64,000 nt of DNA from a virus. Every line of letters begins with the position of its first letter. Position 1 is the stretch's first letter. The notes under the pieces were generated by a model, which saw only the letters and a list, made by a program, of their open reading frames with translations, was not told where the DNA came from and ran no database searches. The DNA lies in the IMG/VR virus record IMGVR_UViG_3300012953_000014, positions 92,636 to 156,635 of that record. The stretch is one strand, 5' to 3'. The translations under genes and the position numbers were made by a program. Shown piece after piece: positions 34,310 through 54,914 of this stretch.

Positions 34310-35272
34310 TTATTTTAGTGATTTATAATCTTCATTATACATCATCTTACATAGTTCTTCAAATTTAACTTTTGGTTCCCAGTTCAAAACCTTCTTTGCT
34401 TTCGCGGGGTTGCCCAACAAATAGGGAACTTCTTGCGGCCTGAATAGTCTTGGGTCAATCTCAACATATTTGTCCGGATCTAACCCCGCATAATCAAACA
34501 CACAATCTAAAAATTCTTTAACACTATATGTCTCTCCTGTGGCGATAACATAATCATCTGGGTTGTCTTGTTGTAGCATGAGCCACATTGCCTCGACGTA
34601 ATCTCCGGCAAAACCCCAATCGCGCTTAGCATCTAAGTTGCCAAGGAAGAGTTTATCTTGTAAACCAAGTTTAATGTTAGCGGCTGCCATCGTAATCTTT
34701 CTTGTTACAAATGTTTCTCCGCGTCGGGGGGATTCATGATTGAAGAGGATCCCGCTTGATGCATGTAACCCATAACTCTCTCGGTAGTTTCTAACCAGGT
34801 TGTGTGCAAAGACCTTAGCACAAGCATATGGAGAAGCAGGCGTCAAAATAGAGTCTTCATCAAATGGATATTCTGGATTGTCCCCATACATTTCTGATGA
34901 TGATGCTTGGTAAAATCTTGATTCTGGGCAGACTTTTTTGACCGCATTCATAATCCTCAAAGAACCCATTGCAATACTATCAACTGTGTGTTCTGGAATA
35001 TCAAATGAGACCCTAACATGCGATTGGGCGGCGATGTTATATATTTCATCAGGTTTAATATCCATCAACATTTCCCACATTGAAGAAGTATCATTCAAGT
35101 CGTGATATCTTAAGTGAAAGTTGGGGTTGCCGAAAATGTGATCTATTCTTGATGTGTTGAATGAAGATGATCGTCTTTTCAATCCATATACTTCATATCC
35201 TTTATCTAACAATAGTTCTGTAAGGTAAGAACCATCTTGGCCTGTAACGCCAGTTATAAGTGCTTTTTTCAT
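34310..35272 (-). CDS. gmd: GDP-mannose 4,6-dehydratase
   Basis: [69 protein letters not shown]. Confidence 0.97.
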
Positions 35273-35300
35273 TTATTGTATTAATCCACCTGTTAAAAAT

Positions 35301-35309
35301 ATTATAACA
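35301..35309 (-). promoter_or_regulatory. Extended -10 element (TGTTATAAT) upstream of gmd
   Basis: TGnTATAAT in the AT-rich fcl-gmd spacer; no clear -35. Confidence 0.45.
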
Positions 35310-35344
35310 TTGTTTTTATTAATTTTGTTGGTATTTTTATATTC

Positions 35345-36280
35345 TTAAAAATGCAAGATTCCCTGGGCTTCTACTAGTTTTTTTGCGACATACCACATAT
35401 ACGTTCGGAAAACTCCTTCCTTAAAAGGGGTAAATTTAAAATCACCAATAAGGTTTTTTAGTTGTGTATTATCCCCATCTTTTCTAAACTGCCCATCTAG
35501 TTGTTTGTTGTAAACTATTTTAATTTCCTTATTGATGCTTTTCAATAAAGTTTGTGCCATCTGATCAATAGTAAGGTTCTCATCTGGACTTACGATTAAA
35601 GGAGTGTCTGTGTTGTGTTTCTCTAATAATACAGGTATCAGACCACACAAGTCTTCTATAAACAACTGTTGGCGCATTGGTTTGCCTGTGCCCCAAAGCT
35701 CAAGTTTTGTTCTACTTCTTGACGTTTTTACGATAAGAGATGGAACAAAATGACAAGTTTCAATATTAAAATCGTCGCCTGGCCCGTATATGTTCGACGG
35801 GCAAAAACATGAATAATTTACCCCATATTGTTTTCTGTAAGATTTAATCTGGACATGTAACATTCTTTTAGTATATCCATAAGAAAAGTTTGTCGGAGCA
35901 GGAGGACCAGAGAGCATGTCATTTTCTGTAAATGGATAGTCATCAACCACATCAGGAAAAGCGCAAGTGCTAAGTGATGCCAAGAGTCTAGGCACACCGG
36001 CCATGTATGCTTCGTGAACAACATTCGTGTTCATCATTACGTTTTTATAAAAAAAGTCTGCTTGATGTTTGGCATTTTTTTTGATACCACCAACTATACC
36101 AGCAAGATGAAGAACAGCATCCAGGTTCGGATAATCCTCAAACATTTTTTTAACTTGAGATGTATCAGTCAAGTCATAATCTTTTGATGAAATGTAAAAC
36201 CAATCTGGCTTGACCTTTTGCAGTTGCTTACCAACAAAACCGGAGCCACCGGTAACTAAAACTCTATCACCTTTTTCCAT
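35345..36280 (-). CDS. fcl: GDP-L-fucose synthase family epimerase/reductase
   Basis: VTGGSGFVG, HLAGIVGGI..N, LSTCAFP, YGYTKR, NIYGPGDDF, HFVPSLI, WGTGKPMRQ; next to gmd. Confidence 0.88.
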   Translation of the reverse strand: MEKGDRVLVTGGSGFVGKQLQKVKPDWFYISSKDYDLTDTSQVKKMFEDYPNLDAVLHLAGIVGGIKKNAKHQADFFYKNVMMNTNVVHEAYMAGVPRLLASLSTCAFPDVVDDYPFTENDMLSGPPAPTNFSYGYTKRMLHVQIKSYRKQYGVNYSCFCPSNIYGPGDDFNIETCHFVPSLIVKTSRSRTKLELWGTGKPMRQQLFIEDLCGLIPVLLEKHNTDTPLIVSPDENLTIDQMAQTLLKSINKEIKIVYNKQLDGQFRKDGDNTQLKNLIGDFKFTPFKEGVFRTYMWYVAKKLVEAQGILHF

Positions 36281-37067
36281 TTAATATCTCCTCTAATGAA
36301 ACATATTCTATTATTTCGTGAAGATTGGAGTTTGGACTTGAGGAAAGAATCTCAAAATGAATACCACTATTGTTTTTATACCTATTAATATCTTTAAGAA
36401 ACTTAGTCCACAACCAAAGGCCGCCATCATCTTCAGAGGGACCCTGGTCAACACCTTCTTCAAAAAAGTAAGGATTGAAATAGTCTGGATGGAAATGTTC
36501 TAAATCTTTTCCCTGTTCAATTGACTCTTCTCTGCGCCCGTAACGACAATCCACGCCAAGCAAAACTGCTCTCTTGTATCCCAACATATAAGAAAGGTTT
36601 GTGGCAAAAATTCCACAGTTTGCATATGCATGAGGGCTAATATATGGCTTTTGCCTTTCTAGTGGTGCAGAGTGAAGTTCTGTTATCTTATCTATACCAA
36701 TCTTTTTACATATGCTGGCCCCATAAAAAACATTAGTGCCTTCGGGTATATTAACCACCTTACTGTGTTGGCTGGCCGCGCTTTTCGAGGCAAGTTGGCT
36801 AATGAAGAATTTCTCTATTTTACATTCAGGGTTTGTAATGTATTTTTTTAATATATCTTTTTTGAATATTTTGTCTATAAGTCTACTGTCTATTAAACAA
36901 TAATATTTGGGCTCGAAGCCCCAATCTTCGAAAGCTATGTATTGGCGATTCATTCCGAAAGTTTCTAAGTTTTTTAGAAGAGAAATATCTATCTCATTTA
37001 ATGATGGGCCTGATCCTATAATAAAAGCTGTTTCATCTAGCGTTATATTTTTATTCTCGTTTCCCAC
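36267..37067 (-). CDS. DUF115/Maf/CstII(GT42)-like transferase
   Basis: AFIIGSGPSL...TFGMNR and LGYKRAVLLGVD...HFHPDYF. Confidence 0.7.
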   Translation of the reverse strand: MGNENKNITLDETAFIIGSGPSLNEIDISLLKNLETFGMNRQYIAFEDWGFEPKYYCLIDSRLIDKIFKKDILKKYITNPECKIEKFFISQLASKSAASQHSKVVNIPEGTNVFYGASICKKIGIDKITELHSAPLERQKPYISPHAYANCGIFATNLSYMLGYKRAVLLGVDCRYGRREESIEQGKDLEHFHPDYFNPYFFEEGVDQGPSEDDGGLWLWTKFLKDINRYKNNSGIHFEILSSSPNSNLHEIIEYVSLEEILNGKR

Positions 37068-37899
37068 TTATAAAATCCTCGAAATCAATATATTTAAAAT
37101 ATTTATTCAAATTTGAACCCTCTGAACATGAATAAACTTTCATGGGTAATTTATAATCATTGATTTCCGTAGCAGCACAATCCCATATATAAACTTGTTG
37201 TTGTTCATTCGGCCTGCCAAAAGTCTGTCCTTTGCCGAAATAGTCATCCCTAAAATGATTCGGATCATAATCTTCATGCGAAACACATCCATCATCTGTC
37301 CACTCAATACTTCTTTGTGTGTCTTTGTCAATGGTATATCTAGCATCGCATCCCAGAAGGGCTACCTCCTCATAACCCATCATATAAAGCATTTTCAAAC
37401 CCATGAATCCTGCATTTGGTTGTATAGGTGAAACAAGCAGGTTTGTGTTTGGAATCTCTAAGTTATGAGATATTGGCAAAAGAATACTCCAGGCTTCGGG
37501 AGGATCAACTAAAAACTGGACATTATCTGATTCTATGAACTTTTCACCCGGAAAATCTGAACTGGTTTGGATTGAATGAGGTAAAAAGAATCTTTCTATG
37601 TTACTGTTTTCAATAAGGTTGTTGATATCTTTATGGGTAGATTTTATATCTTCAGAATCAATTGATAAATAATATGAGGGCTCAAACCCCCAATCTTCAA
37701 AAGCGACATAAGCCCTATTAAAAGTAATTGTTCTCTTATCTTTGAGTTTTGATATGTCTATTTTTTTTAAGCTCGGGCCAGTCCCAATCAAATATGCCGT
37801 TTTATGTTTTAAGTTTTTTTTGGGATATGGAACACTAAAATATCCCTTACCGATACCAACCTTAAAACTATGTAAGTCTTTGCCCTTAAAGTGTGGCAT
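37051..37899 (-). CDS. DUF115/Maf/CstII(GT42)-like transferase (tandem paralog)
   Basis: AYLIGTGPSL...ITFNR and MGYEEVALLGCD...NHFRDDYF; shares AFEDWGFEPxYY with its neighbour. Confidence 0.7.
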   Translation of the reverse strand: MPHFKGKDLHSFKVGIGKGYFSVPYPKKNLKHKTAYLIGTGPSLKKIDISKLKDKRTITFNRAYVAFEDWGFEPSYYLSIDSEDIKSTHKDINNLIENSNIERFFLPHSIQTSSDFPGEKFIESDNVQFLVDPPEAWSILLPISHNLEIPNTNLLVSPIQPNAGFMGLKMLYMMGYEEVALLGCDARYTIDKDTQRSIEWTDDGCVSHEDYDPNHFRDDYFGKGQTFGRPNEQQQVYIWDCAATEINDYKLPMKVYSCSEGSNLNKYFKYIDFEDFISGKRE

Positions 37900-38495
37900 T
37901 ACTTATCTGCTTTTCTCAGAGGTGAATCTGCCATCCTTTCTTTTTCTTGATTAATTGATGGACAACGGCTTCCGACTCGATGAATAAGATCATAGAACAA
38001 CATCATTGAAGCAACTTCAACAGTGTGAAAGTAATCACATTCAAAAGACAACTCATTCATACCCTCATTTAGAGCTTGTGATTTTTGCCCACTAATCAAA
38101 AACGTTCCAAAACCCTGTTCTTCGCCCCAATGTAAGGCATTTACAACATTCGCAGAGTTTCCAGAGCATGAAAGCCCGATGACCAAACACTCAGAAGGAT
38201 CTTCAACTAAGCCAATTGTTTCAAGCCATCTTGTAAACATATGCTCAAAACCATGATCATTTGCATTTGAGGTGATAAAGCCAACACTATCAAACGAGTA
38301 AACTGACTTCTCCTGTATTAATCTTGAAAGATCTGTTGCCATATGACTTGCAACATAGTGTAGGCCACCATTTCCGATTAAAAACACACGCTTAGCATCA
38401 GCAAGCATATCTACAAGTTTTGCGTGTTCAGGTTTAGATACTGCTTCTTCACATTTTTCTTCGATATTCTCGAAATCGATTAACATTTTACTCAT
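37899..38495 (-). CDS. SIS-domain sugar-phosphate isomerase, GmhA-like
   Basis: FLIGNGG...ASHMATDL, ITSNANDHGFEHMF, GLSCSGNSANVVNAL. Confidence 0.8.
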   Translation of the reverse strand: MSKMLIDFENIEEKCEEAVSKPEHAKLVDMLADAKRVFLIGNGGLHYVASHMATDLSRLIQEKSVYSFDSVGFITSNANDHGFEHMFTRWLETIGLVEDPSECLVIGLSCSGNSANVVNALHWGEEQGFGTFLISGQKSQALNEGMNELSFECDYFHTVEVASMMLFYDLIHRVGSRCPSINQEKERMADSPLRKADK

Positions 38496-38507
38496 TTTTT
38501 TACCTCT

Positions 38508-39668
38508 TTATATTGAAAAAATTATTTTCAATGATTTCTCCAGTTCCTCTTTTGATAGTGCTAAACTTGGGCGGAACCTAATAGTTTTGTCTCCCGTCTT
38601 ATTAAATAGCATCCCTCTGTCAAACATCTTGTCTGAATATTCATTACAGGTTTCAGCGGTTTCAAAATCAAATGCCATAATTAAACCACAGTTTCTAACA
38701 TTTTTTAAATCTTTAACGCTTCTTAATCCATCAGCCAACAAATCTCCAGATTGTTTTGCATTGTTTAGAATATCATATTCTTTGTATGCCTTGATAATAT
38801 ACTTACAACGTATCATATCAATTATGGTTCCATCCCAAGTAACTTCCAACCTAGTTGGCGTTTCAAATATTTTAGAAAACCTTTCTTTAACCATGATTCC
38901 TGATAGTTGTGCTCGTTTACCAAAAATTAAAATGTCAGGCTCTACTCCCAAGTGTTCAAAATACCACACTTTTCCTGTTGCACCAAAACCTATTTGCACT
39001 TCATCAAATATCAAAGGAATATCATATTTATCACATAAATCTCTTAACGTTTTTATAAATTCTATTGAGATATAATGATCACCCAGGGTAGCCTGGATAG
39101 GCTCTACTAAGACAGCAGTAATGTTATCATTAGCAAAAATGTTTTCAAGGAAATCTTTTGAAACATCATCTCGCGTTTTGATAGAAAAGTGTGAAGGGAA
39201 ACCTTTTAACCTATGTTGCACAGGGCCATTTCGAGAAGTTGTAAAACAACCCCATGAATTTATACCATGGAAGGCACCAACAAATGAAAGTATTTTTGGC
39301 TCTTTTGATTTTTTATAATCTATGGCAGTTTTAATCGCTGCTTCTACTGCTAAAGCTCCAGTGCAACAATAATGAATATATTCATACTTTCCAATACCGG
39401 CGAAAGCCTTAAACTCTTTATCGAAAGATTCCGCTTCATCTGAAATGAACTCACAGTTTGTAATCTTTGCTGATAAGATTTTTGCAACTTCACTTTGAAA
39501 CTCATCGGTTTTAAATATTTCGTGGTTATACCCAAGAGGTAATGAAGAATACATGCTAAAGAAGTCTAAATATTCTTTACCAGTGTTTTTATCAGCAAGG
39601 TATGAGCCATGGCTATTTTCTAAATCTGCTCTTATTTTAAACTTACTGCTTCTTGCTACGTTTATCAT
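38508..39668 (-). CDS. Class III PLP-dependent aminotransferase (lysine-6-aminotransferase-like)
   Basis: YLDFFSMYSSLPLGYNH, TGALAVEAAIK, AFHG, VEPIQ, LIFDEVQIGFG, FGK, IRFRP. Confidence 0.9.
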   Translation of the reverse strand: MINVARSSKFKIRADLENSHGSYLADKNTGKEYLDFFSMYSSLPLGYNHEIFKTDEFQSEVAKILSAKITNCEFISDEAESFDKEFKAFAGIGKYEYIHYCCTGALAVEAAIKTAIDYKKSKEPKILSFVGAFHGINSWGCFTTSRNGPVQHRLKGFPSHFSIKTRDDVSKDFLENIFANDNITAVLVEPIQATLGDHYISIEFIKTLRDLCDKYDIPLIFDEVQIGFGATGKVWYFEHLGVEPDILIFGKRAQLSGIMVKERFSKIFETPTRLEVTWDGTIIDMIRCKYIIKAYKEYDILNNAKQSGDLLADGLRSVKDLKNVRNCGLIMAFDFETAETCNEYSDKMFDRGMLFNKTGDKTIRFRPSLALSKEELEKSLKIIFSI

Positions 39669-40728
39669 ATTTATTGCTCTCCATAAAGTATTCTATAACC
39701 AAATATTTAATATGATCTTTGTCATTTAAAATTTTGACTTCTGCATCCCCAACATCATTTAACAAAATACAAGTTATTGAATTACCAATGTTTTTCTTAT
39801 CTTTTGATAATATTTTAAAATACTCTTCAACCTCGGCAATGTTCATAGTGTAGGAAGGGATATTCTTCTTTATTGTTTCATGTATTTTATCATGTAACTC
39901 CCACTTTATAAAGCCTAAACTTGCTGATATATAGTTTGCAATATCCATCCCTAAAGTTACTGCTCGGCCATGGGATATCTCATAGTTTGTCAGAGCTTCG
40001 ATTGCATGACCAAAAGTATGGCCATAGTTGAAGATTCTTCGCTCATCCTCATCAAACTCGTCTCTCTCTATCATTCTTTTTTTAATATTTAAACTTTCAC
40101 AAATATGGGGATTTATCAGTGTATAATCATTCAATATGTCCTCATATGAGTCCATCAATTTGTGAATACTTGGAGTTCCATCAACCAAGTAATAATGTAA
40201 TATTTCACCAATGCCAGATCTAATATCATCTTGTTTGAGGGTTTTTAACAACTCGGCGCAACAATATATTTGACTTGGTGGATAAAAGGTTCCTAATAGG
40301 TTTTTGGCTCCGGCAAAGTTAATCGAAGATTTACTGCCTATACAGCTATCAGCCTGTGCCAACAAGGTTGTCGGAAAAAATTTCCATTGAATGCCACGAT
40401 ACAAAACAGACGAGGTGAAGGCGGTTATGTCTTGAACTATCCCACCACCTACGGCCACAATTGTGTTGTTTTTTCTTATACCTTTTTGAATAAGTTCTTT
40501 TAAAATATCTTGGCAATACTCTAATGTTTTATTTTCTTCAGTGGCCTCAATAACAAATATTTTATCACTATCAAAACTATCACTAAAAACAGGGTATTCT
40601 CTGTTGACATTCGAATCAATAAATAAAAATGATTTTTCTGATACTGAGTCGACCAGAGTGTTGGTCAGTTTTTCAAAAGAAACGTCATAATCTCGCCTGT
40701 AAGATTTTACGGTAAAGTTCTCAAACAT
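39643..40728 (-). CDS. Sugar-phosphate cyclase, 3-dehydroquinate synthase (AroB) superfamily
   Basis: GGGIVQD, PTTLLAQADSCIGSK, KNLLGTFYPP, FNYGHTFGHAIE, HGRAV, DKK. Start refined from 40743. Confidence 0.9.
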   Translation of the reverse strand: MFENFTVKSYRRDYDVSFEKLTNTLVDSVSEKSFLFIDSNVNREYPVFSDSFDSDKIFVIEATEENKTLEYCQDILKELIQKGIRKNNTIVAVGGGIVQDITAFTSSVLYRGIQWKFFPTTLLAQADSCIGSKSSINFAGAKNLLGTFYPPSQIYCCAELLKTLKQDDIRSGIGEILHYYLVDGTPSIHKLMDSYEDILNDYTLINPHICESLNIKKRMIERDEFDEDERRIFNYGHTFGHAIEALTNYEISHGRAVTLGMDIANYISASLGFIKWELHDKIHETIKKNIPSYTMNIAEVEEYFKILSKDKKNIGNSITCILLNDVGDAEVKILNDKDHIKYLVIEYFMESNKYDKRSKKQ

Positions 40729-41428
40729 TGGTAAACCCACCATCCACTACGATATTTTGACCTGAAATATATGTATTCATCTTGCTTGCAATGAACAGCA
40801 CAGCTTTTGATATTTCAGAGGGTTCAGCTAACCTTTTCATTGGAACTTGTTGTGACAACTCATTCATCCCTTCTTCACCTAAAATTTGTTTGGTTAAATC
40901 GGTTAAAGTAAATCCTGGAGAGATTGCGTTTACTAAAACATTATATTGTGCAAGCTCTGCGGCAGAAGATAGGGTTAGCCCGAGTAGCCCGGATTTGGTA
41001 GATGAATACGCTACTCTCTTTTCTTTACCGCGTAGACCCCATATAGAGGAGATATTAACTATTTTTCCATAGTTTTGTTTGATCATGTTTTTAGAAACAG
41101 TTTTTAAAACTTTATAAGGCGCTGTCAAATTTACTTTTAAGATCTTTTCCCAATCTTTATCTTGAGAATCGCAGACATAATCAATTTTATTTATGCCCGC
41201 GTTATTGATTAATACATCAATCTTCTTATCTTTTATAAACTCTATAAAATCTTGAGTTGAATCTTCGTCCGAGAAATCAACACAAAAATATCCGTCACCA
41301 GTTCTTGGCTTGGTTCCTGTAAGTATCAGGTTTGCGCCTGCAATGCGCATGTCTTCGGCTACTTGCTTTCCTATGCCACGGGTAGCGCCAGTAATCAGAA
41401 CTGTTTGATCTTTATAGTCTATTATCAT
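40721..41428 (-). CDS. Short-chain dehydrogenase/reductase
   Basis: TGATRGIG, NNAG, NISS, YSSTK, VNAISPG, VDGG. Confidence 0.93.
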   Translation of the reverse strand: MIIDYKDQTVLITGATRGIGKQVAEDMRIAGANLILTGTKPRTGDGYFCVDFSDEDSTQDFIEFIKDKKIDVLINNAGINKIDYVCDSQDKDWEKILKVNLTAPYKVLKTVSKNMIKQNYGKIVNISSIWGLRGKEKRVAYSSTKSGLLGLTLSSAAELAQYNVLVNAISPGFTLTDLTKQILGEEGMNELSQQVPMKRLAEPSEISKAVLFIASKMNTYISGQNIVVDGGFTNV

Positions 41429-42549
41429 TTCGGGTAAATATGTTCAACATCGGCTCGACTGACTGCTAAACGAATTGCTGGCTTATCACCAACTGCTTTG
41501 ATCTTGTGTACTTTGCCTTTAGGGATAAAAACAATATCATCTTTACCAACAATAAGTTTTCTCCCCTCTATATCCCATTCCCATTGGCCATCAACAATGT
41601 ACCACCACTCATTCCAATCTGGGTGATAATGATTTCTATTCCCTTCGCCTGGCTGTTGGTGAATAAGGGTTGCACTATTATTTTCGGTATCTACTAATCT
41701 CTTGCTCCAAGACACAGTACTATCAAATCTGCTCCTAACCTCATTGATGTTTACAGGTACTTCACTGTTGGCCGAGTGTAGATCATTGTTCAATACACCA
41801 TCTTTTTTCAAGATACTGGGAACATCTACTTCAACGTGCTCCTTGTCATCAGCGTATCTAACAATATATTCTTCTTTGCTTGATAAGAATCTTGCAACAA
41901 GTTCTGCAAACTGAAAGTCTTCCTCATTGTCAATATCAATCGTAGAGTTTCCTTTGATCGTAAAGAAGCCAATATTACCATCTCCACCATGATAACCACA
42001 TTTATATTTGTTCATATTTTTAACATAGTTATCTTTTTTCCACGCCATCAAGCCGCAAGCATACGCTTTAACTGGATTTACCAATTGTGATGGTGGGGAT
42101 ACTTTTTTCTGGTCAAAGTTTATCGGAGCATTATTGTATACACACTCAATCTTTTCATTCTTAACCGATACAAGTGTGTCTAACTTTTTAGATAGCATTT
42201 CACCAGTAAAATCTTTTATTTCTTTCGGAGTCATAAATGGTGATGTTGCAAGAACTTGCACTATTACATCACATTCAACATTGTCTAAGAAGTCCATGAC
42301 AAAGTCATCATTAGTTGCAGAATCAGTAGATAACTCAGGTGGTCTTTTATAGAACTTTGCACCTTCTGACACTGCAATGTTCCCAATAACATCAGACTCT
42401 GTGTTTACCCACACCTCATCGAAACATCCTGCATTGATTGCTGCCCGAATAGTATAACTTATAAGGGGAACACCATTCAACAATCTTATGTTTTTTTTAT
42501 GGATTCTTTTGCTGCCTAAACGAGCTGGAATCATTGCTACGGTTTTCAT
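41425..42549 (-). CDS. Acylneuraminate cytidylyltransferase-family protein fused to a C-terminal cupin
   Basis: IPARLGSKRIHKKNIR, TSPF, IDIDNEEDF; cupin HYHPDWNEWWYIVDG...IPKGKVH. Confidence 0.88.
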   Translation of the reverse strand: MKTVAMIPARLGSKRIHKKNIRLLNGVPLISYTIRAAINAGCFDEVWVNTESDVIGNIAVSEGAKFYKRPPELSTDSATNDDFVMDFLDNVECDVIVQVLATSPFMTPKEIKDFTGEMLSKKLDTLVSVKNEKIECVYNNAPINFDQKKVSPPSQLVNPVKAYACGLMAWKKDNYVKNMNKYKCGYHGGDGNIGFFTIKGNSTIDIDNEEDFQFAELVARFLSSKEEYIVRYADDKEHVEVDVPSILKKDGVLNNDLHSANSEVPVNINEVRSRFDSTVSWSKRLVDTENNSATLIHQQPGEGNRNHYHPDWNEWWYIVDGQWEWDIEGRKLIVGKDDIVFIPKGKVHKIKAVGDKPAIRLAVSRADVEHIYPK

Positions 42550-42552
42550 ATT

Positions 42553-43407
42553 TTACCTCAAAGAATATGCATTAGTCAAGTAATCATCAACTGTAATTTT
42601 AGATGGATAATATTTTTGTAACATTTTATAAAAATATTTGATTTGTGGAAGTTGAGCGTGAAGGTCATCACGCGCTTCACGTCCATCTATAAGTCGGTCA
42701 GAGTTCCAGGCCCCATATAAGTCTCCAGTGACAGACTTAACAGAATCATAATACTCATCGAAATAAACGTTTCCCCATTTGCCCATATCAAAAAATGTCA
42801 TTCCAGTAACATACACTTCTTTAATATCATAGTTCATGAGTGTAACGAGACCTGAGAATCCTGTGTTGCAAGTTGTGCCAACTTCCTTAAACATTTTAAA
42901 CAAATACCCATCACACACGTTGTGCCACGGGACGCTTGTGCTATCAAACCAATCTTCTTGTTTTTTAATGTCCCACATTGAAAGCATAGGGCAAATCATA
43001 TATTTTAGTGTTTTAATGTAATCAATATTATTATCACACTCTACACGATTGAAGTCATTAAAACTACCAAATATCACATCGGTCTTTGATCCATAGTCAG
43101 CCCATTTTTCTTTTGGTATAGCAAATTTTTGATTCAATCGAATAACAATATCATAAGAGTCAATAAACACACCGTTGCCCAAACCAGATAAATGTGGAGA
43201 AGGTCCAACGATTGCTACCCTTTTCCCTTCAACTAGGTTGGCGAAATCAGGATCCTTCTTATAATCACGAAAACCATCAACAAACCCCATGTTTGAAAGT
43301 TGTTGAAGTTGTTGTTCAGGTGTTGGTGAGCTGCAATCCCAGCTGGGTGTGGTTTCCTCAATAGGAATACCGATTATATCACTTTTTAAATCTTTGTACC
43401 AGTTCAT
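42553..43407 (-). CDS. GT29 (sialyltransferase)-like protein
   Basis: L-sialylmotif-like RVAIVGPS..L.....G..IDSYDIVIRLN...DYGSKTD; S-motif-like NTGFSGL...VTGMTFF. Confidence 0.75.
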   Translation of the reverse strand: MNWYKDLKSDIIGIPIEETTPSWDCSSPTPEQQLQQLSNMGFVDGFRDYKKDPDFANLVEGKRVAIVGPSPHLSGLGNGVFIDSYDIVIRLNQKFAIPKEKWADYGSKTDVIFGSFNDFNRVECDNNIDYIKTLKYMICPMLSMWDIKKQEDWFDSTSVPWHNVCDGYLFKMFKEVGTTCNTGFSGLVTLMNYDIKEVYVTGMTFFDMGKWGNVYFDEYYDSVKSVTGDLYGAWNSDRLIDGREARDDLHAQLPQIKYFYKMLQKYYPSKITVDDYLTNAYSLR

Positions 43408-43411
43408 TTCA

Positions 43412-47694: not shown

Positions 47695-48176
47695 TAGTAT
47701 TTCCTTTTGAGGTTTATATAGTGAGGCTCATTAGAGGATATCAAGTTTTTAAAATCTTCTTCTAGTTCTTCTTGGTTTTCGGGGTGGTGTACATGGACAT
47801 TTTTAAAACATCCCATAATCTCTTTATCATCTTCAGCCCAATGTGAAAATCCCAAATATCCGTAATCCCTATCCCTGCCTCCGCCGACCAACTTAACTGG
47901 AATATTTTCATGATCCAAATAGTTCCTGATTAACTCAAATGGTCTATAAAGAAGAAAAGACGTAATAGAATATACAACCGGAATCTTTCCTTCCATCGCC
48001 ATACCTACCGCAACGCCCATCATCAATTGTTCTGCCGAACCAACATTGTGAAACCTAGTCGGAAAATCTCTCCTAATATCATCCCACAATCCATAACCAA
48101 GATCGCCAGTGACCAAGACAATGTCTTGATTATTTAACATCTCATTGTATAAGAGTTTAGCAAAGGACTTTCTCAT
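47694..48176 (-). CDS. Transketolase-like pyrimidine-binding subunit (split enzyme)
   Basis: TGDLGYG, NVGSAEQLMMGVAVGMA, YSITSFL..RPFELIR, GFSHWA. Confidence 0.88.
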   Translation of the reverse strand: MRKSFAKLLYNEMLNNQDIVLVTGDLGYGLWDDIRRDFPTRFHNVGSAEQLMMGVAVGMAMEGKIPVVYSITSFLLYRPFELIRNYLDHENIPVKLVGGGRDRDYGYLGFSHWAEDDKEIMGCFKNVHVHHPENQEELEEDFKNLISSNEPHYINLKRKY

Positions 48177-48813
48177 CGAAATCTCTCCCTCTTTTAATCA
48201 TTGATTTTGCTAGCTGATAATCTTCATCTGACATAACGTGATAGTGAGCGTTCAATCCTCGCAAGAATGGAAACTGCTCAACAGAAGTATATCTTATATT
48301 GATTCTTGGATAAAATGTTAGCAATCTTCTGGTAAGATACTCCATATCCACTTTATCGTATGCACAATATCCGTTAACATTGACATACACTTTAATGTTA
48401 TCTATTTTGTTTTCTTGAATAAAGCGCAAACCTTCCCAAATAGAGCCTTCGGCGCACTCTCCATCGCTAATAAGACAGTGTACAGTCCTGTCTTTGTTTG
48501 CCATTGCTCGACCAATAGCTACAAGTAGACCCAGCCCTAGACTTCCTGTGGAACAATATAGCTTATCTTGCTCATCTCGATATGGATGCCCACCATGTTT
48601 CATAAAAAGCTTTTCTGCGTCGATACCATGATATTTTTCAATTGCTGCATAAAGTGCTACTGCTGCATGTCCAGCGGATAAAATAAAGATATCGTCCTCA
48701 CCTTTCTCTTGAAAGATTTCGTCAATAATATCAACACTTGAAAAGTAACTGCCCAAGTGTGAAAGTTTGTGTATATATGCGATTTCCAATATACGTTCTT
48801 TTAAAGATTCCAT
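48157..48813 (-). CDS. Transketolase-like ThDP-binding subunit (split enzyme)
   Basis: SHLGS, FILSAGHA, STGSLGLG, SDGECAEGSIWE...N, HY. Confidence 0.88.
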   Translation of the reverse strand: MESLKERILEIAYIHKLSHLGSYFSSVDIIDEIFQEKGEDDIFILSAGHAAVALYAAIEKYHGIDAEKLFMKHGGHPYRDEQDKLYCSTGSLGLGLLVAIGRAMANKDRTVHCLISDGECAEGSIWEGLRFIQENKIDNIKVYVNVNGYCAYDKVDMEYLTRRLLTFYPRINIRYTSVEQFPFLRGLNAHYHVMSDEDYQLAKSMIKRGRDFDEKVLC

Positions 48814-49535
48814 TTTTCTTTCCAAAAGGTTTGAATCATTTGATCATAACCCTTTCCTTCATGTTGAACTTTCCATGTTGCTTGCTGGGGATGCCATCTA
48901 TAATAAAATCCCAACCAACGTGGAGCTGGGTATATCATAACATTATTATCGGCAAGTTTGCAATACAAATCATAATCTGCTGCTCCACCATAAAGTTCAG
49001 GTTGTGCTTTTAACAAACCCTCATTCAATAACTTGACATTGTAGATTACTGTGGGCGTGTTTACTGGACATCTAACCAAGCATTGTTTTTTAAAGTCTTC
49101 CAAAGATGGGTAGAAGTGAGATAGTTGGTCCATTGTTTGCCCAGTATGCGATCTTACACCCCAAACAGGACTTTGGAAGGCCAATACTTGGTCGGGTGCA
49201 GACAGTATAAAATTCATGCAGTTTTCAATATAATTTTCACTCATATAATCATCTGAACCGATGATTGTTACATAGTCTCCTGTGATGTGTTTGAAACCTT
49301 CTTCCCTAGCTTCATCCCAACAATGAGGATAAATATTTGGTGCAGTGGAAGTGATTAGTTGGGGATGTTTTTGTTGTATCTCTTTTACAATATTAAACGT
49401 ATTATCTGTACTCTCATTATCAACACAGACAACCTCAATATTTTCATAAGTTTGTTTTAATGCAGATAATACACATTCTTCAATCCATTGTTGCGAGTTA
49501 TAACATGGAATTACTATACTTACTTTTGGCTTCAT
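48801..49535 (-). CDS. Glycosyltransferase family 2
   Basis: VSIVIPCYN, SALKQTYENIEVVCVDNESTD, GSDD, ADYDL, YYRWH. Confidence 0.92.
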   Translation of the reverse strand: MKPKVSIVIPCYNSQQWIEECVLSALKQTYENIEVVCVDNESTDNTFNIVKEIQQKHPQLITSTAPNIYPHCWDEAREEGFKHITGDYVTIIGSDDYMSENYIENCMNFILSAPDQVLAFQSPVWGVRSHTGQTMDQLSHFYPSLEDFKKQCLVRCPVNTPTVIYNVKLLNEGLLKAQPELYGGAADYDLYCKLADNNVMIYPAPRWLGFYYRWHPQQATWKVQHEGKGYDQMIQTFWKEKWNL

Positions 49536-50497
49536 ATTTCTAACATTTGTTTCACACGATTAACATAAGTGTGATTTTCCAGAATCATTTTTCTATTTTC
49601 TTCTTTTATATCTTCTAAGCTTTGATTACCATATTTCTTGATAACTTGAATCATTTCCTGTGGAGTTTCAACTAAAGGAACATTTGGGAAAATATTCTTC
49701 ATCACCTCAACCTTATCAGATATTAAAAATCCGTTAAGACCCAGTGACTTGAAAGTCCTTTCATTCACGTCTGTTCCCAATACGTGTTGGTAGCGATCAT
49801 GAATGTTTATAGCAACTTTACTATTGTGCAGTAGATTTGCCTCATCTTGAACTGAAATGTTCTGATTAATGAATATACCTGCTTTTAACCCGGAGTTTTT
49901 TATTTCTGCAAAGTGTGATGTCATGATGCGGCGCTTTTCATCATATCCGTTATCAGCCCAACCGCCAACATAACAAACATCGAACTCGTATCTGGCGTCT
50001 TTTACTGGCTTGTAATCAAAAGAATCAAAGGCTAGGTGAACTGTCTCTATGTCATTACCCCATTCTTGATAAAAATCATACATTCTTGTATCAACAAAAG
50101 TCCACTTGACTACATTATCTAACGAGTTTATTTGTTTAATACCTTTTTGGCTTATTGATGTAATAAAATTTGGATGTGAACCCCATGGTTCTAAATAATA
50201 AAATGGTTGAACAAATAAGAAAGTCTTCTTTGACTTTGACATAATCTCTAATCTATCAGGATCTACATCTTCTTGATAAAACTTCATACTATGTTCGGGA
50301 TTGCGTTGGTTGGGATCTGCGAATCGATAACCGCTTATATCTCCATCTACCGCCATAAGATAGTAATCTTCATCGTCGATATCTAAAAGTTTGTCATAAT
50401 ATACAACTTCGTATCCTAAAGACCTCCAAGCATTAACATATCCTCTGTAGATCCACCTTCCTGCTCCAAAGGCGTGATTTCTAACATATACCTTCAT
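49532..50497 (-). CDS. CgeB-like (GT-B) glycosyltransferase
   Basis: FDVCYVGG, SKVAINIH, VNERTF, FLISD, NHTYVNRVKQML. Confidence 0.85.
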   Translation of the reverse strand: MKVYVRNHAFGAGRWIYRGYVNAWRSLGYEVVYYDKLLDIDDEDYYLMAVDGDISGYRFADPNQRNPEHSMKFYQEDVDPDRLEIMSKSKKTFLFVQPFYYLEPWGSHPNFITSISQKGIKQINSLDNVVKWTFVDTRMYDFYQEWGNDIETVHLAFDSFDYKPVKDARYEFDVCYVGGWADNGYDEKRRIMTSHFAEIKNSGLKAGIFINQNISVQDEANLLHNSKVAINIHDRYQHVLGTDVNERTFKSLGLNGFLISDKVEVMKNIFPNVPLVETPQEMIQVIKKYGNQSLEDIKEENRKMILENHTYVNRVKQMLEI

Positions 50498-51432
50498 AGC
50501 TTCTTAATTTCGTTTAATATTTTTCTTAGTCTAATTTTTGATGTATGCTCTTTTAGGAATCTTTTTTGGCCTGCTTGACCTATTTTGATTGCAGATTCTG
50601 GGTTTGACACTAAAAATCTTGCTTTTTCAATCAACTCTTCGACAGTATCAAAAACCATTATTTCCTTATCAATCTCGAAAAGTTCCTCAATGCCTTCAAC
50701 ATGTTCCGTAAGTAATGCTGTGCCACATGCTGGTACTTCAAAAATCCTGGCTTTCATTTGTCTTTCGGGTTTTTGACTACATTTAGTAAAGTTTAACCCA
50801 ACAAGAGATACTGCATACATATTAAACATCTCCTCAAAAGATGCATGTCTTGGATTGCTTGATGGCCCATTTACACCCAAACCTGCTCGGTGCATTTTGG
50901 TCATGAACTCTAAACGATCAGCCCCAAGATGACCAGCAAATGAAAACGGGATACGTTTTTTTGCAATCACTCCAGAGTACAGATCTTCATTACAGTGCCA
51001 ATTTCCATAAAGAATGTTTTCGTAGCCAAAATCCCTATATTTGTCCATATATCTTTTTTCAGGAGTTGAACAGACATGAAAGTTGTTACAGACATTACTT
51101 GAAAATGAATCAAAACGCCACACATCATCGCAAAACCAGTTAAACGTCTTTGTCCTTCCGCTTAATGTTTCAGCCATGATTGTTTGCCATGGTTCGTCTG
51201 GACAAACTGTTGCATCTCCCGTCATCATACAGAACAAGAGATCTGGTTTTTGTGTTTCAATATGTTGCTTTAGTGCTGTATTTCCGTAATAAGATGTATC
51301 AAAAAAATGCACAGTGTGCTTTAATGATAATAATGGGAGATAAAAGTTCCAAAATGCAAAATCATATCTAAAGGGAGTATCCTCTTGATCATGGCGGCTG
51401 ATTGTTTTTGGAGCTACAACTGTTATTTTCAT
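50494..51432 (-). CDS. CgeB-like (GT-B) glycosyltransferase
   Basis: NWFCDDVWRF, MKARIFEVPACGTALLTE, FEIDKEI, EHTSKIRL. Start refined from 51447. Confidence 0.87.
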   Translation of the reverse strand: MKITVVAPKTISRHDQEDTPFRYDFAFWNFYLPLLSLKHTVHFFDTSYYGNTALKQHIETQKPDLLFCMMTGDATVCPDEPWQTIMAETLSGRTKTFNWFCDDVWRFDSFSSNVCNNFHVCSTPEKRYMDKYRDFGYENILYGNWHCNEDLYSGVIAKKRIPFSFAGHLGADRLEFMTKMHRAGLGVNGPSSNPRHASFEEMFNMYAVSLVGLNFTKCSQKPERQMKARIFEVPACGTALLTEHVEGIEELFEIDKEIMVFDTVEELIEKARFLVSNPESAIKIGQAGQKRFLKEHTSKIRLRKILNEIKKL

Positions 51433-51433
51433 G

Positions 51434-52285
51434 TTATTCTTCCTCAAAAAAGCTCAATACTAAATCAGGAATTTCATCTCTTTTTTGTCTCATTTTATCA
51501 ACAAGATTTTTTCCCTTAAGATTAAACCATTCTTCGCCTGCTGCGCCGATTAAATCATTGGTTATAATTTTACAACCCAACATTCGTGCCTCAACAATGA
51601 TTCTTGATAAGGTTTCAGGAGTTTTAGGAAAAAAAACAAGCGACTCATTTTGACTTAGTCTTTTAATGAATTTCTTATAATCACTTGGAGCAATAAGATC
51701 ATATTCCATGTTTTTTAGAATACAATATTTGACAGCACCGGAGGTGTTCTTATGATCTATATTAGATTCCATTATCGAACATTCAGGTTTTTTTTCGCCC
51801 TGACTTAACTCTTCAATAAAATCCAATACATCGGTAGACCACAAATTCCCAGAAAGACTGTGAATATTGTTGAGCTTTAGGTTTTTTTCAACAATATCTT
51901 TATGCATTGATGACTGACATAAAACGGCAAGTGCAGAAGCATAAAAATCATGATATACAAGTTGATCAGCAGGAGCTTGAAAATCTTCATATAATGCAGG
52001 GTTTCTGGTTTTCAGATATTTGTGATCGTGCTCATAAATAACATATCTAGTTAAGTTTCTTATTGCAGAAATAACATCTGGTTTTATGTTTAAAAAGTTT
52101 GCTATAATAAAGCAATACTCTTGTTTGTTTTCTTCTATGATGTCTCTTGTGAGTTCATGTGAATGCACACGACGGACAACGTGCCCTCGTTTATGTAAAA
52201 TCTCGCAAAATATGTGATTATTTAATTCTCCACCACCGAGGATACCGTCCTCAACAAAGACATCTGCAACAAATAAAACTTTCAT
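51434..52285 (-). CDS. GT-B fold glycosyltransferase
   Basis: GGGELN, EHDH, FFPKTPETLSRIIVEARMLGCKIITN. Confidence 0.78.
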   Translation of the reverse strand: MKVLFVADVFVEDGILGGGELNNHIFCEILHKRGHVVRRVHSHELTRDIIEENKQEYCFIIANFLNIKPDVISAIRNLTRYVIYEHDHKYLKTRNPALYEDFQAPADQLVYHDFYASALAVLCQSSMHKDIVEKNLKLNNIHSLSGNLWSTDVLDFIEELSQGEKKPECSIMESNIDHKNTSGAVKYCILKNMEYDLIAPSDYKKFIKRLSQNESLVFFPKTPETLSRIIVEARMLGCKIITNDLIGAAGEEWFNLKGKNLVDKMRQKRDEIPDLVLSFFEEE

Positions 52286-53544
52286 TAGTCAAATGATTTT
52301 ACGCTCAAACTGCTTAACCAGCTTTCAACCTCTTCAGATTCTTCTTGCCATACTGCATCTCTCATTTTGTCATACATTTTTTGCTCTTCAAATTGCTCAC
52401 AAACATATTTTTTAAGCTTTTTAGCTTTAGAGAGTGCTGCTCCGTGATTTTTGTAAACATCACGAATAACTTTCTTATAATGCCATTCTTTGGCAAAGCA
52501 CCACTGGGAATCTGCCTCAATAACTCCTGGCCATACTGCTGCTTGTTGAACCGGATTAATATCGTAAGCAACTGTTGAAAACATTGCTTTCATCTTTTTA
52601 GAGTTCTTTCTTTCAGGCATATACAAGAAATCTGTGTGCCCACTCCAATCTGGAGCAATCACAGGAAGTCCATTATAAGCTGCCTCGAATAGAGGAAGAC
52701 CGAAACCCTCACCATGCGTTAATGTTACAAGCGCCTTAACTTTGGGGTGATTATATAGCCCTGTCATCTCTTCGTCTGTAAGATCTCCGTGAAGTAGGTT
52801 AACTTCACACTTTCGATCTTTATACTCTGAAAGGATTTTTCTAATGGTGTTTTGCATTGCCTCTCGATCTTGCAAACAGTTTTTCATTAAACTAGTCTTA
52901 ACAATAAGACCGACATTTTGATCATAAAACTCTTCTACAAACCATCGGATGGTATTACCCATGTTTTTTCTAGGGATCCATGTTCCCACAGTAAGAAAGT
53001 TGAAATCATGCTTCAAGTCTAAATCTATTTTAGCTTTTTTGACTTTTTTGACCGGATATCCAACTACTTCAATGGGTGTATCAATTTTTGTTTCAAAAAC
53101 TTCACCAGTCATACCGTTTTGAACTTTAATCATTGTATTGTCAAAACCAAACTTTGCATGATTAGAAACCACAATAATCTTGTCCATATTGGTTGAGGGG
53201 TTGAACCACTCGGGGGAAATCTTAGTTGATTCAATCCCGGCAGTTACTCCGATATTGATAGCGGCAAGATTGTTAGTCCATTCGTTTGGAACAGTAACTT
53301 GCATGGAAAAATCAAAAAAGTCTTTCTTAATCTCTCCAAGAGCAACTGTTTTGTGTAAAAGGGAGTCAATCCAACGACGTTCGTCTGTATCTTCCCACAA
53401 CCAACCAGTTTGTCCCCAGTTAATGTTAACCAAGTAGATGTCATATAAGTCTGGTCTGGATCTTAATGATCTTAGGACAAACCTTGTGTGCTCTCCATAG
53501 CCACTTTGACTTAGTGCTGGTCCTCTAACAATAATTTTTTTCAT
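52285..53544 (-). CDS. Glycosyltransferase family 4
   Basis: SGYGEH, RKN, HGEGFGLPLFEAAYNGLPVIAPDWSGHTDF. Start refined from 53562. Confidence 0.9.
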   Translation of the reverse strand: MKKIIVRGPALSQSGYGEHTRFVLRSLRSRPDLYDIYLVNINWGQTGWLWEDTDERRWIDSLLHKTVALGEIKKDFFDFSMQVTVPNEWTNNLAAINIGVTAGIESTKISPEWFNPSTNMDKIIVVSNHAKFGFDNTMIKVQNGMTGEVFETKIDTPIEVVGYPVKKVKKAKIDLDLKHDFNFLTVGTWIPRKNMGNTIRWFVEEFYDQNVGLIVKTSLMKNCLQDREAMQNTIRKILSEYKDRKCEVNLLHGDLTDEEMTGLYNHPKVKALVTLTHGEGFGLPLFEAAYNGLPVIAPDWSGHTDFLYMPERKNSKKMKAMFSTVAYDINPVQQAAVWPGVIEADSQWCFAKEWHYKKVIRDVYKNHGAALSKAKKLKKYVCEQFEEQKMYDKMRDAVWQEESEEVESWLSSLSVKSFD

Positions 53545-54914
53545 ACTTTTCTCAACTCCCAAGATTTATAACCTTTTCGGGTTTCCCACGATCCAAACTT
53601 CTCATGTGTTTCAGTCAATAGTTGATCCCAACTTTCCGAGAAGTCTTTAAAGTTATAATTCTTTAAGACATGCTCTCGACCAACTGTTCCAATTTCAGCG
53701 CGTTTTTCTGGTCCATATTCATACATCTTTGTCAATGCTTCAACGACCTGCTCTTTACACAATCTATCCTCGTAAATATATGGAACTTCTTGAGAACCAA
53801 TAACTGAGCGTGATGAAGGTTCTAAGCCAATGCCGTGTTCATATTCTACTGCTTTTCCGGCATTTTTGGCATTTCTCCTGTCAACGATTTTATCGCTAAT
53901 CTTCTTAACGTTTGTTACTTGCTCTTGTAATCCACCTGTCATGGTTGCAATAATCGGTGTTTCACATGCAAGAGACTCAAATGTTGCAAGACCAAAACCT
54001 TCTGCATCTGATACACTGATTGTTACATCAGCAGCTGAATAAATGATTGATAGGTTTTCAATACTAAGTTTTTCTGAAGAAACCATGAACTCTTTATCAT
54101 CTTCAACATTGAGTCCCAACTTTTCAGCAATTGCATATAAATCTTGACCATTTGGATCATTTACTTCGGTGTGCATCAAAAGAGTTGTTTTGGCATTTTT
54201 ATTCTTCTTTTTCAACTTGTCCATGAACTCTTTATACCAAAAGACTAAAGAGCCGCTTTGTTTTCTTCGAGCATTTCTGTTGTTCCAAAAAACCAAGAAC
54301 CTATCATCCTCAATACCAAGTTGTCTTCGAACGTCACTGACTTGATTAGCTTCTGCTTTCTTAAAAATATCTGGAACTGCATGAGGAATGTATCTTTCTA
54401 AAACTCCTGGTGAAACAGTTTGAACAATATCTGATGTTAGTTTTGAGATTGTCGCAACAACATCGGTAGAGTCATACCATACTTTATTGAACTTTGGATA
54501 CGGATAGTTGTCCCAAACATGATAATACACCATCGGGACTAAGCTTCTGATTTCATTCTCTGTTTGCCAGAGCCAACCATAAAACCTTGGGTCTGTCATA
54601 AACCATAAGATATCTGGCTTTTGAGTCCGAAGAATAGAGCGAATAGTGTCAGGATCTCCGTATCCATCTACTGGAAAAATAGTCCAACTATCTTTGAATT
54701 CATCAATCTGAACTGGTTGATAGTTCTCATGCTTGATTGCACCACCCAAACTAATAAACTCATATCTTCCCGTTTTTAGTAACTCAACAATAACATACTT
54801 TGTTTGAGTACCAACACCCGATGGTGATAGTGGGTGATCAGATATTGTTAAAATTTTTATTTTTTTTGTTGGATTTTCTTGCGTGAAGTCTAAGTCCACA
54901 ACTTGTTCTGTCAC
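53541..54914 (-). CDS. Glycosyltransferase family 4
   Basis: SDHPLSPSGVG, NNRNARRK, AEGFGLATFESLACETPII...GGLQEQ. GTG 54914 follows AGGAG (track start 54941). Confidence 0.9.
   Translation of the reverse strand: MTEQVVDLDFTQENPTKKIKILTISDHPLSPSGVGTQTKYVIVELLKTGRYEFISLGGAIKHENYQPVQIDEFKDSWTIFPVDGYGDPDTIRSILRTQKPDILWFMTDPRFYGWLWQTENEIRSLVPMVYYHVWDNYPYPKFNKVWYDSTDVVATISKLTSDIVQTVSPGVLERYIPHAVPDIFKKAEANQVSDVRRQLGIEDDRFLVFWNNRNARRKQSGSLVFWYKEFMDKLKKKNKNAKTTLLMHTEVNDPNGQDLYAIAEKLGLNVEDDKEFMVSSEKLSIENLSIIYSAADVTISVSDAEGFGLATFESLACETPIIATMTGGLQEQVTNVKKISDKIVDRRNAKNAGKAVEYEHGIGLEPSSRSVIGSQEVPYIYEDRLCKEQVVEALTKMYEYGPEKRAEIGTVGREHVLKNYNFKDFSESWDQLLTETHEKFGSWETRKGYKSWELRKV

Follow-up and report, generated by a model that had tools for sequence, protein, structure and literature searches.

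The window analysed here is a stretch of 64,000 nucleotides (nt) that forms the final 64 kb of the linear 156,635-bp IMG/VR virus record IMGVR_UViG_3300012953_000014. It carries a run of 22 co-oriented minus-strand open reading frames (ORFs), g01 to g22 at positions 34310-54941, which encode 12 sugar-nucleotide enzymes and 10 glycosyltransferases and are referred to here as the glycan island. We show that the functions of these genes can be assigned at the family level, that their products are soluble, that the island consists of a conserved head and a variable body in related phages, and that membrane partners are absent from the record and relatives searched. The order in which the enzymes act, the identities of the sugars beyond fucose, and the acceptor are what we infer from this gene set. 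As the role of the island we propose cytoplasmic glycosylation of the phage's own virion proteins, for which a candidate acceptor lies nearby; we hold this proposal about equally likely to prove right or wrong.

Gene content of the island

The 22 genes were assigned by Pfam, NCBIfam, PDB sequence and fold (AlphaFold 2 (AF2)/Foldseek) searches (Table 1). The assignments reproduced exactly the enzyme tally of a preliminary description of this DNA, which listed ten transferase-like genes and GDP-, nucleoside diphosphate (NDP)- and CMP-sugar branches. Its run of 22 genes was also recovered, although its island end at 54914 is a slightly later start of the last gene, whose ORF reaches 54941. The genes overlap or abut, and the sole gap of more than 20 nt is one of 72 nt between g02 and g01. 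The highest 19-residue Kyte-Doolittle mean was at most 1.38 across all 22 proteins; by this crude hydropathy method none has a transmembrane segment, as had been claimed. All recognisable transferases of the record fall inside the island, and no paralogues of island genes were found elsewhere in the record.

The transferases comprise two GT4 enzymes (g22 and g21), a compact GT-B (g20), two Glyco_trans_1_2 (CgeB-like) proteins, a GT2, a GT-A/GT8-like protein, a GT29-like protein (weak match) and two DUF115 proteins. The best PDB match of g22 was chlorovirus NY-2A B736L (3OY2, E 6e-7). A GtfA/GtfB-type identity of g21 and g22 was considered and rejected, as no sequence similarity was detected. 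Foldseek matched g20 to BshA, Gtf3/GtfC, T4 alpha-glucosyltransferase and WaaG. The only GT2 match in the 157-kb record was g17. For g14, no Pfam match and no PDB sequence-profile match was obtained; its fold matched those of WbbM, the LH3 GT domain, Mimivirus R699, LgtC and glycogenin, and an invariant N-x-D (NADV) stands where the DXD motif is expected. Against ST3Gal-I, g10 gave an E value of 0.06, and it co-occurs with the CMP-sugar module in the related loci L002, L003, L004 and L158. The g04 and g03 proteins (266 and 282 amino acids (aa)) are 34% identical to each other, and PF01973 is carried by 69 of the 73 homologues listed for them, while g03 itself falls below the PF01973 cut-off. 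Because g10, g04 and g03 share a Rossmann-type G-x-G/S-P-S motif, and given the co-occurrence, these three would be expected to transfer the CMP-linked product.

The first of three donor modules would convert host GDP-mannose to GDP-L-fucose through g01 and g02, both of which are identified at the family level. The g01 protein scored 470 bits against TIGR01472 (equivalog cut-off, 415), and g02 scored 250 bits against human GDP-L-fucose synthase (FX, 4E5Y), with its S-T-C, YxxxK and His motifs intact. It may be added that g02 (35345-36280, minus strand) is far nearer to the human enzyme than to E. coli Fcl (130 bits).

The second module holds the 4,6-dehydratase, the E1 (pyridoxamine phosphate, Fe-S) 3-dehydrase and the 4-reductase of a CDP/dTDP-3,6-dideoxyhexose pathway, and may lead from host NDP-glucose to an NDP-3,6-dideoxyhexose through g11 to g13. 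The g11 protein scored 308 bits against TIGR01181. The g12 protein (44362-45723, minus strand) scored 460 bits against NF011936 RfbH (cut-off, 423) and 331 bits against PDB 3BCX; it keeps the PAHH active-site histidine and has cysteines at or near the four cluster positions. No E3 reductase for g12 was found in the island, and no NTP_transferase (PF00483) in the 157-kb record. Electrons would come from a non-island reductase, and both the E3 reduction and nucleotidyl transfer would have to be supplied by the host (or general ferredoxin reductases) or by an unrecognised phage gene. The split thiamine diphosphate (ThDP) enzyme formed by g15 and g16, with homologues at 64-71% identity in L004 and L169, may add a two-carbon, yersiniose-type branch to a keto-sugar.

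The third module, g05 to g09, is at the level of family prediction a pathway to a CMP-activated sugar or cyclitol. The AroB-like g07 scored 428 bits against TIGR04425 (cut-off, 400) and lies next to the SDR gene g08, and g09 is a CTP_transf_3 cytidylyltransferase fused to a cupin. Members of TIGR04425 were found at no fewer than 595 loci in cellular genomes, which come from many phyla. In cellular AroB loci the g07-g08 pair was kept in 61 of 75, with SIS in 20 and CTP_transf_3 in 13, and the neighbours kept around these genes include SDR, NDP-sugar dehydratases, an ALS-like ThDP enzyme, SIS, CTP_transf_3 and GT2, among others. A tblastn search of cultured phage records with the AroB-like protein returned only distant aroB matches (27-34% identity), several of them in bacterial-contig records. 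A literature search for TIGR04425, or for a glycosylation island pairing a DHQS with a cytidylyltransferase, found nothing.

A separate observation concerns L004, a 13.9-kb contig (JACAFS010000027.1) of a 'Thaumarchaeota' metagenome-assembled genome (MAG). It carries homologues of g03 to g19 at 27-71% identity (most at 43-71%) in apparently the same arrangement, split ThDP enzyme included, and is most likely a piece of a phage genome that was binned with an archaeal MAG in error.

The preliminary description had also raised the possibility that the contig is a chimera with a host lipopolysaccharide (LPS) locus. This was ruled out by GC content (0.34-0.37 in the island, 0.32-0.40 in the flanks), by same-strand phage genes on both sides, and by homologous genes at the same site in relatives. 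A megablast search of the island against cultured phages gave no match.

Table 1 Positions of island genes, flanking genes and promoter elements in the window
Feature	Position	Strand	Basis or remark
g22, GT4-type GT-B	53541..54941	-	Glycos_transf_1 5.8e-11
g21, GT4-like GT-B	52285..53562	-	weak Glycos_transf_1 and GT4-conflict matches
g20, compact GT-B, 283 aa	51434..52285	-	AF2 pLDDT 94.9
g19 and g18, Glyco_trans_1_2 (CgeB-like)	49532..51447	-	PF13524 5.6e-27 and 2.2e-12
g17, GT2 without membrane domain	48801..49535	-	PF00535 3e-27
g16 (PP domain, 222 aa) and g15 (Pyr domain, 160 aa), split minimal two-domain ThDP enzyme	47694..48825	-	Transketolase_N/TPP_enzyme_C and Transket_pyr matches
g14, GT-A, GT8-like	46543..47694	-	fold only; AF2 pLDDT 89
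g11 NDP-hexose 4,6-dehydratase, g12 E1/RfbH-type 3-dehydrase, g13 RmlD-like reductase	43412..46546	-	3,6-dideoxyhexose module
g10, sialyltransferase-like (GT29-like), candidate CMP-sugar transferase	42553..43407	-	PF00777 26.8 bits, cut-off 23 (weak)
g05 SIS isomerase, g06 class-III aminotransferase, g07 AroB-like cyclase, g08 SDR, g09 cytidylyltransferase-cupin	37899..42549	-	predicted CMP-sugar/cyclitol module
g04 and g03, paralogous short DUF115 (MptE/Maf-like) transferases	36267..37899	-	PF01973 39.1 bits (cut-off 34.6) and 27 bits
g02 GDP-L-fucose synthase and g01 GDP-mannose 4,6-dehydratase (Gmd)	34310..36280	-	family and PDB matches
Exonuclease, conserved upstream anchor	54929..55696	-	phrog_69 and phrog_1218
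gp55-like late sigma factor, conserved downstream anchor	32796..33515	-	phrog_234, weak
Sigma70-type promoter: TTGACA, 18 nt, TG-n-TATTAT	55741..55770	-	best match in region, 11/12 with TG
Candidate late motif aACTATTTA(T), copies in window	8182, 18953, 22320, 58147, 59850, 63285	-	
Giant fibre-like proteins (3269 aa and 536 aa), candidate glycan acceptors	8838..20274	-	[ST][GA]S excess
M23-type metallo-endopeptidase domain protein	31495-32511	-	
PhoH-like protein, long (441 aa)	56772-58097	-	phrog_2765
tmRNA, phage-encoded	59880-60126	-	ARAGORN tag peptide ANDNVALSLAA; Rfam RF00023, 98 bits

Conservation among relatives and timing of expression

Judged by its gp6-like baseplate protein, this uncultured marine phage is T4-like and belongs to a lineage apart from the classical cyanomyoviruses. 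The protein shares 31-34% identity with its counterparts in Microcystis phage Mel-JY01 and in Flavobacterium phage vB_FspM_immuto, and its match to S-PM2 gp6 covers only about one fifth of its length. The gp55-like sigma gene was found in at least 596 related IMG/VR loci, and the phage group is therefore abundant.

The island is anchored by the nuclease gene on its upstream side and by the sigma gene on its downstream side; where a contig includes both of these fixed points, they lie between 3.4 kb and about 23 kb apart. The exonuclease gene was found in 44 related IMG/VR loci, in about 40 of which it is followed by g22 and then g21, adjacent and in the same order, at 44-68% identity. In these loci g22 is 50-68% identical; g21 (44-63% identity) was found in 47 loci and always adjoins g22. 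The smallest island, 3.4 kb in the complete genome G001, consists of the GT4 pair only. Beyond the pair the content varies: g20 is present in 18 related loci, Gmd-like and dehydratase-like genes are common, and g03-g10 and g12-g19 are rare. The CMP and dideoxyhexose modules occur independently of one another (L158 versus L112 and L120). A g20-like domain is fused to g21 in L174, L197, L167, L168, L095 and L200, and g20 is fused to a GT2 domain in L115, L165, L207 and L135. These fusions suggest that the g21, g20 and GT2 proteins may act together.

The same head is present in two cultured relatives. In both immuto and Mel-JY01, an annotated PD-(D/E)XK nuclease gene, matched to the exonuclease of the window by annotation and position only, lies upstream of a g22-like and then a g21-like gene; in Mel-JY01 a GuaB gene stands between the nuclease and the pair. 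The body behind the pair differs from that of the window and consists of transferases, methyltransferases and sugar aminotransferases. A g22 homologue is also carried by Rhodothermus phage RM378. Thus, in a clade with hosts from more than one phylum, a single site carries an island in which a conserved initiating head is joined to a hypervariable body.

A sigma70-type extended -10 promoter sits 45 nt before the start of the nuclease gene, and the pattern TTGAC-N13-17-TGnTAnnnT was found upstream in relatives as well, in 21 of 35 distinct regions, compared to 1.1% of control windows. It is probable, from this conservation of sequence, that the promoter marks the start of the island transcript. 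A candidate late motif, aACTATTTA(T), was identified in the whole record (22 copies on the coding strand versus 3 on the other), and 16 of 29 sites with the CTATTTA core lie within 80 nt upstream of a start. This motif differs from the T4 late promoter TATAAATA. No copy of aACTATTTA precedes the island genes. The T4-type sequence was likewise sought before them and rejected, since all five of its minus-strand copies lie inside other genes. Because of the conserved sigma70-type promoter and the lack of candidate late motifs before island genes, the island is probably expressed early or in the middle phase and not as part of the late operon. The preliminary description had noted that the island lies directly upstream of the sigma factor and baseplate genes. 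The position is correct, with structural genes downstream after the sigma gene and the nuclease and PhoH genes upstream, the island standing behind the early-type promoter; late co-expression as the meaning of this position does not agree with the promoter data. Elsewhere in the window, a late-type motif was seen 50 nt before the PhoH-like gene, and a candidate late motif, CTATTTAT, at 59850, just past the 3' end of the tmRNA.

The acceptor of the glycan

The island would constitute a self-contained cytoplasmic glycan-assembly locus of the phage. In the proposed scheme, g22 and g21 would initiate the glycan on an acceptor that all phages of the clade share, and eight variable transferases (g20, g19, g18, g17 and g14, plus g10, g04 and g03) would extend it, the last three drawing on the CMP-activated product of the AroB-like cyclase pathway encoded by g05-g09. 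The acceptor would be virion proteins, chiefly the giant fibre-like ones encoded downstream, at Ser/Thr of the tripeptide [ST][GA]S. Expression from an early or middle host-type promoter would have the sugar pools and transferases ready when the structural proteins appear. A phage-borne acceptor is argued for because the g22/g21 pair is kept across phages of hosts with different envelopes (Flavobacterium and Microcystis, with g22 also in RM378). The chlorovirus capsid is glycosylated in the cytoplasm by enzymes of the virus itself, which we count in favour of virion glycosylation beside the match of g22 to B736L.

The tripeptide [ST][GA]S was compared with expectation from composition-preserving shuffles. 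It occurs 52 times versus 9 expected in the 3269-aa protein (z 14-15) and 15 times versus about 2 in the 536-aa protein (z 9.6-9.7). An excess was also found in two proteins encoded before the window, while the island enzymes have none (4 versus 4.9). In G001, which carries the GT4 pair alone, a 3302-aa giant protein keeps the excess (32 versus 10.5). Four phages that carry the pair had genome-wide ratios of observed to expected tripeptides of 2.27, 1.53, 2.15 and 2.14, whereas the ratios were 1.43 and 1.33 for two T4-like cyanophages that lack it; the top z values were 15, 6.8, 12.9 and 10.5 versus 5.5 and 4.9. As a comparison of sequences, this contrast is suggestive only.

In the 157-kb record, no match was found to Bac_transf, Polysacc_synt (Wzx, PF01943) or NTP_transferase. 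In three 100%-complete relatives, immuto and Mel-JY01, there was none to Polysacc_synt, Bac_transf, Wzy_C (PF04932) or Glycos_transf_4, the last two models having been run on the relatives only. Among 1025 ORFs of at least 100 aa on the island strand, taken from the island regions of 120 related loci, not one contained three or more hydrophobic segments. As to a Gtr-type set, neither the island nor the relatives contain a small multi-span or polytopic protein, and the lone GT2 lacks a membrane domain; no GtrA model was run. The claim of the preliminary description that the island lacks an exporter, a priming enzyme and GtrA/B therefore holds for Wzx, Wzy_C, the primer families and polytopic ORFs, with GtrA and ABC2 judged by the transmembrane scan only. 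The only ORF of the record with at least three hydrophobic segments encodes 752 aa at genome positions 56632-58890 (minus strand), about 34 kb before the window; four strong segments span residues 487-633, and no Pfam match was found.

The cellular relatives of the CMP-sugar module differ in this respect. A polytopic membrane ORF lies within 10 kb of the AroB cassette in 30 of 52 cellular loci of at least 15 kb. For seven of the polytopic proteins a Wzx/Wzy label was considered and dropped, since none belongs to a Pfam family, and they are called polytopic membrane proteins only. Because membrane partners are absent in the phages and frequent beside the cellular cassettes, the phages carry, as far as gene content tells, the soluble chemistry of bacterial surface-polysaccharide loci minus the export parts.

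Combining these observations, we tentatively propose a more specific model, autonomous cytoplasmic O-glycosylation in a widespread T4-like aquatic clade. The GT4 pair would prime [ST][GA]S sites on giant fibre proteins, and a hypervariable, membrane-free cassette derived from bacterial polysaccharide loci would extend the glycan to strain-specific complexity resembling that of giant viruses, with fucose, a 3,6-dideoxyhexose that may be branched, and a CMP-activated product of the AroB-like cyclase pathway. We consider this full model somewhat less likely to be right than wrong.

Several points weigh against glycosylation of virion proteins. Soluble peripheral transferases are usual in the assembly of lipid-linked O-antigen and capsule, and a host undecaprenyl-pyrophosphate (Und-PP) acceptor together with host priming and export could serve the island. 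Primers of the Und-PP-GlcNAc type are widespread, so conservation of the pair across host phyla is not decisive. DUF115 and CgeB-like domains occur in polysaccharide loci too, and g20 resembles in fold not just the protein-directed Gtf3/GtfC but also T4 alpha-glucosyltransferase, which is DNA-directed. An early-type promoter beside DNA-metabolism genes suits a DNA- or host-directed role equally well. The tripeptide contrast compares four genomes with two and has a baseline other than 1; the repeats of fibre proteins could by themselves produce the excess, without glycosylation. The absences in the 157-kb record come from a genome about 71% complete by CheckV, and the glycan is predicted here from genes.

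The preliminary description had concluded that the acceptor is cytoplasmic. The soluble enzymes, the lack of a detected membrane partner and the candidate protein acceptor nearby agree with this; the possible use of a host primer and exporter does not, and likeness to Maf and CgeB proteins is uninformative. DUF115 and CgeB-like domains do not fix the acceptor, and cellular CMP-sugar cassettes, some of them with DUF115, are usually found beside polytopic membrane proteins.

The strongest alternative is remodelling of the host envelope, in which the oligosaccharide would be built on a host undecaprenyl-pyrophosphate primer and displayed on LPS, capsule or S-layer by a host flippase or ABC exporter and ligase, resulting in a superinfection block or in altered grazing or adsorption. 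Comparable genes have been read in this way (PMC7029224, PMC12801897), polytopic membrane proteins are encoded beside the nearest cellular kin of the CMP-sugar cassette, and GT2, GT4, GT8-like and RfbH/Gmd proteins are classic O-antigen enzymes. The early-type promoter also fits a host-directed function. However, serotype-changing phages normally bring membrane Gtr, Wzy or acetyltransferase genes, and here no primer, flippase, polymerase or ligase was found by model in five relatives and no polytopic ORF in 120 related loci. The host Wzx, Wzy or ligase would also have to accept a hypervariable foreign glycan, the initiating pair is conserved across phages of Bacteroidota and Cyanobacteria, and the phage looks strictly lytic. 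We regard envelope remodelling as unlikely, if a serious competitor to virion glycosylation.

A second alternative, which we judge very unlikely, is that another cytoplasmic acceptor, such as a host protein (flagellin, pilin, or a translation or defence factor), a small molecule or a lipid, is modified to take over or disarm the host. The soluble enzymes and early expression would be compatible with this, as would the weak GT4-conflict matches of g21 and g22, and relatives of DUF115 are known to act on flagellin. Yet inactivating a host factor would not require a hypervariable multi-sugar product of ten transferases, the phages that keep the pair infect hosts whose surface appendages are unrelated, and no result points to a specific target.

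Glycosylation of phage DNA is the least probable of the alternatives. In this case some or all of the transferases would put mono- to oligosaccharides on a hydroxylated base and thereby evade restriction, as in T4, RB69/DLP3 and MT-TET-GT clusters. LPS-related phage transferases can put up to trisaccharides on 5-hydroxymethylcytosine (5hmC) (bioRxiv 10.1101/2023.12.21.572611) or polyarabinose on 5-hydroxycytosine (5hoC) (PMC13326640); these routes start from the product of a ThyA homologue or from a methyltransferase plus TET chemistry (bioRxiv 10.1101/2023.12.21.572611, PMC13326640). The start of the island adjoins the nuclease and DNA-metabolism genes behind the early promoter, and the g20 fold resembles T4 alpha-glucosyltransferase. 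Against this, the thymidylate-synthase family (PF00303; hydroxymethylase or 5hoC synthase) was not found in the record or in three complete relatives, although one cultured relative has a thyA-like gene, and C5-cytosine methyltransferase (PF00145) was not found in any of five genomes. Tet/JBP (PF12851) was not found either, yet the positive control of that search was silent. Ten transferases and three rare-sugar pathways go far beyond any known DNA glycan. The lower rank given to DNA in the preliminary description is upheld by these searches.

Relation to known systems and neighbouring features

To our knowledge, virion glycosylation has been proven only for mycobacteriophages, with two transferases, and for giant viruses. 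Mycobacteriophage virion glycosylation (summarised in PMC12619734, cited in PMC12801897) resembles the situation proposed here in that soluble phage transferases, variable among relatives, act on the phage's own capsid and tail proteins in the cytoplasm. Mycobacteriophages are reported to carry about two transferases and no sugar-nucleotide pathways, and to glycosylate the C-terminal tails of capsid and tail-tube subunits. In contrast, the island has ten transferases and three donor pathways, the candidate [ST][GA]S sites are dispersed in fibre-like proteins, the host may be Gram-negative, and the system is predicted from genes.

Giant viruses, with the chlorovirus capsid glycans and the Mimivirus fibril clusters (PMC9614988), share with the island rare-sugar pathways and soluble transferases that do not use the host secretory route. 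The likeness extends to single genes, as g22 has its best PDB match in chlorovirus B736L and the g14 fold resembles Mimivirus R699. Giant viruses differ in having eukaryotic hosts and sugars such as viosamine, bacillosamine and rhamnose, among others, and the similarity of g22 is distant (E 6e-7). We know of no CMP/DUF115 branch and no AroB-like cyclase described in giant viruses.

Gene sets comparable to the island are already in the literature on marine T4-like phages. In marine T4-like cyanophages and pelagimyophages (P-SSM2, S-SCSM1 and S-SCSM2R, and a host-recognition cluster), "LPS" or cell-wall genes were read as changing the host O-chain, and S-SCSM2R is reported to have 22 such genes, 13 of them transferases (PMC7029224, PMC12801897). 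These clusters resemble the island in combining many transferases with deoxysugar enzymes in a hypervariable region beside tail-fibre genes. They belong to another lineage, and their descriptions include nothing on a nuclease-GT4-GT4 head or its promoter, on missing membrane partners or on a CMP/AroB module. The present analysis adds the fixed arrangement of nuclease, promoter and GT4 pair at the head, the span of sizes and the modular make-up of the body, the finding that complete genomes lack membrane and DNA-acceptor partners, the contrast to cellular loci, and the corrected timing.

Two bacterial protein glycosylation systems offer further parallels. Maf/DUF115 flagellin islands likewise combine a CTP_transf_3 cytidylyltransferase with DUF115 transferases that act on soluble cytoplasmic substrates. 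The island differs from them in that no NeuB/PseI/LegI-type enzyme is present among the 22 genes, the donor route is AroB-like, the DUF115 proteins are short and lack the Maf flanking domains, and there is no flagellin gene. In the serine-rich-repeat adhesins, GtfA/GtfB initiate and Gtf3/GtfC extend the glycan; similarly, the adjacent GT-B pair of the island could start O-glycans on a Ser-rich giant protein, with small GT-B enzymes (the g20 fold) as extenders. As no sequence similarity to GtfA/GtfB and no accessory Sec system is present, this parallel is functional only.

If the virions are glycosylated, the "LPS genes" of abundant marine T4-like phages would be genes for coating the particle, not for modifying the host surface. 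This would bear on the persistence of phage particles at sea, their sticking, their evasion of host sensing, and host recognition. The two cultured relatives, immuto and Mel-JY01, make virion glycosylation testable, and the fixed-head layout singles out the GT4 pair and a fibre fragment. The island is also a compact, soluble, membrane-free version of an uncharacterised and very widespread bacterial sugar pathway (TIGR04425), so its chemistry should be easier to solve.

A protein identical to g04 is recorded on a 182,658-nt contig, which indicates that public data contain a longer and possibly complete assembly of this phage. Outside the island, the M23-type protein gene directly follows the sigma gene and heads the giant structural genes, and the PhoH-like gene heads the string of genes that runs into the island. 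The gap that separates the genes on the PhoH side from the following block holds the phage-encoded tmRNA.

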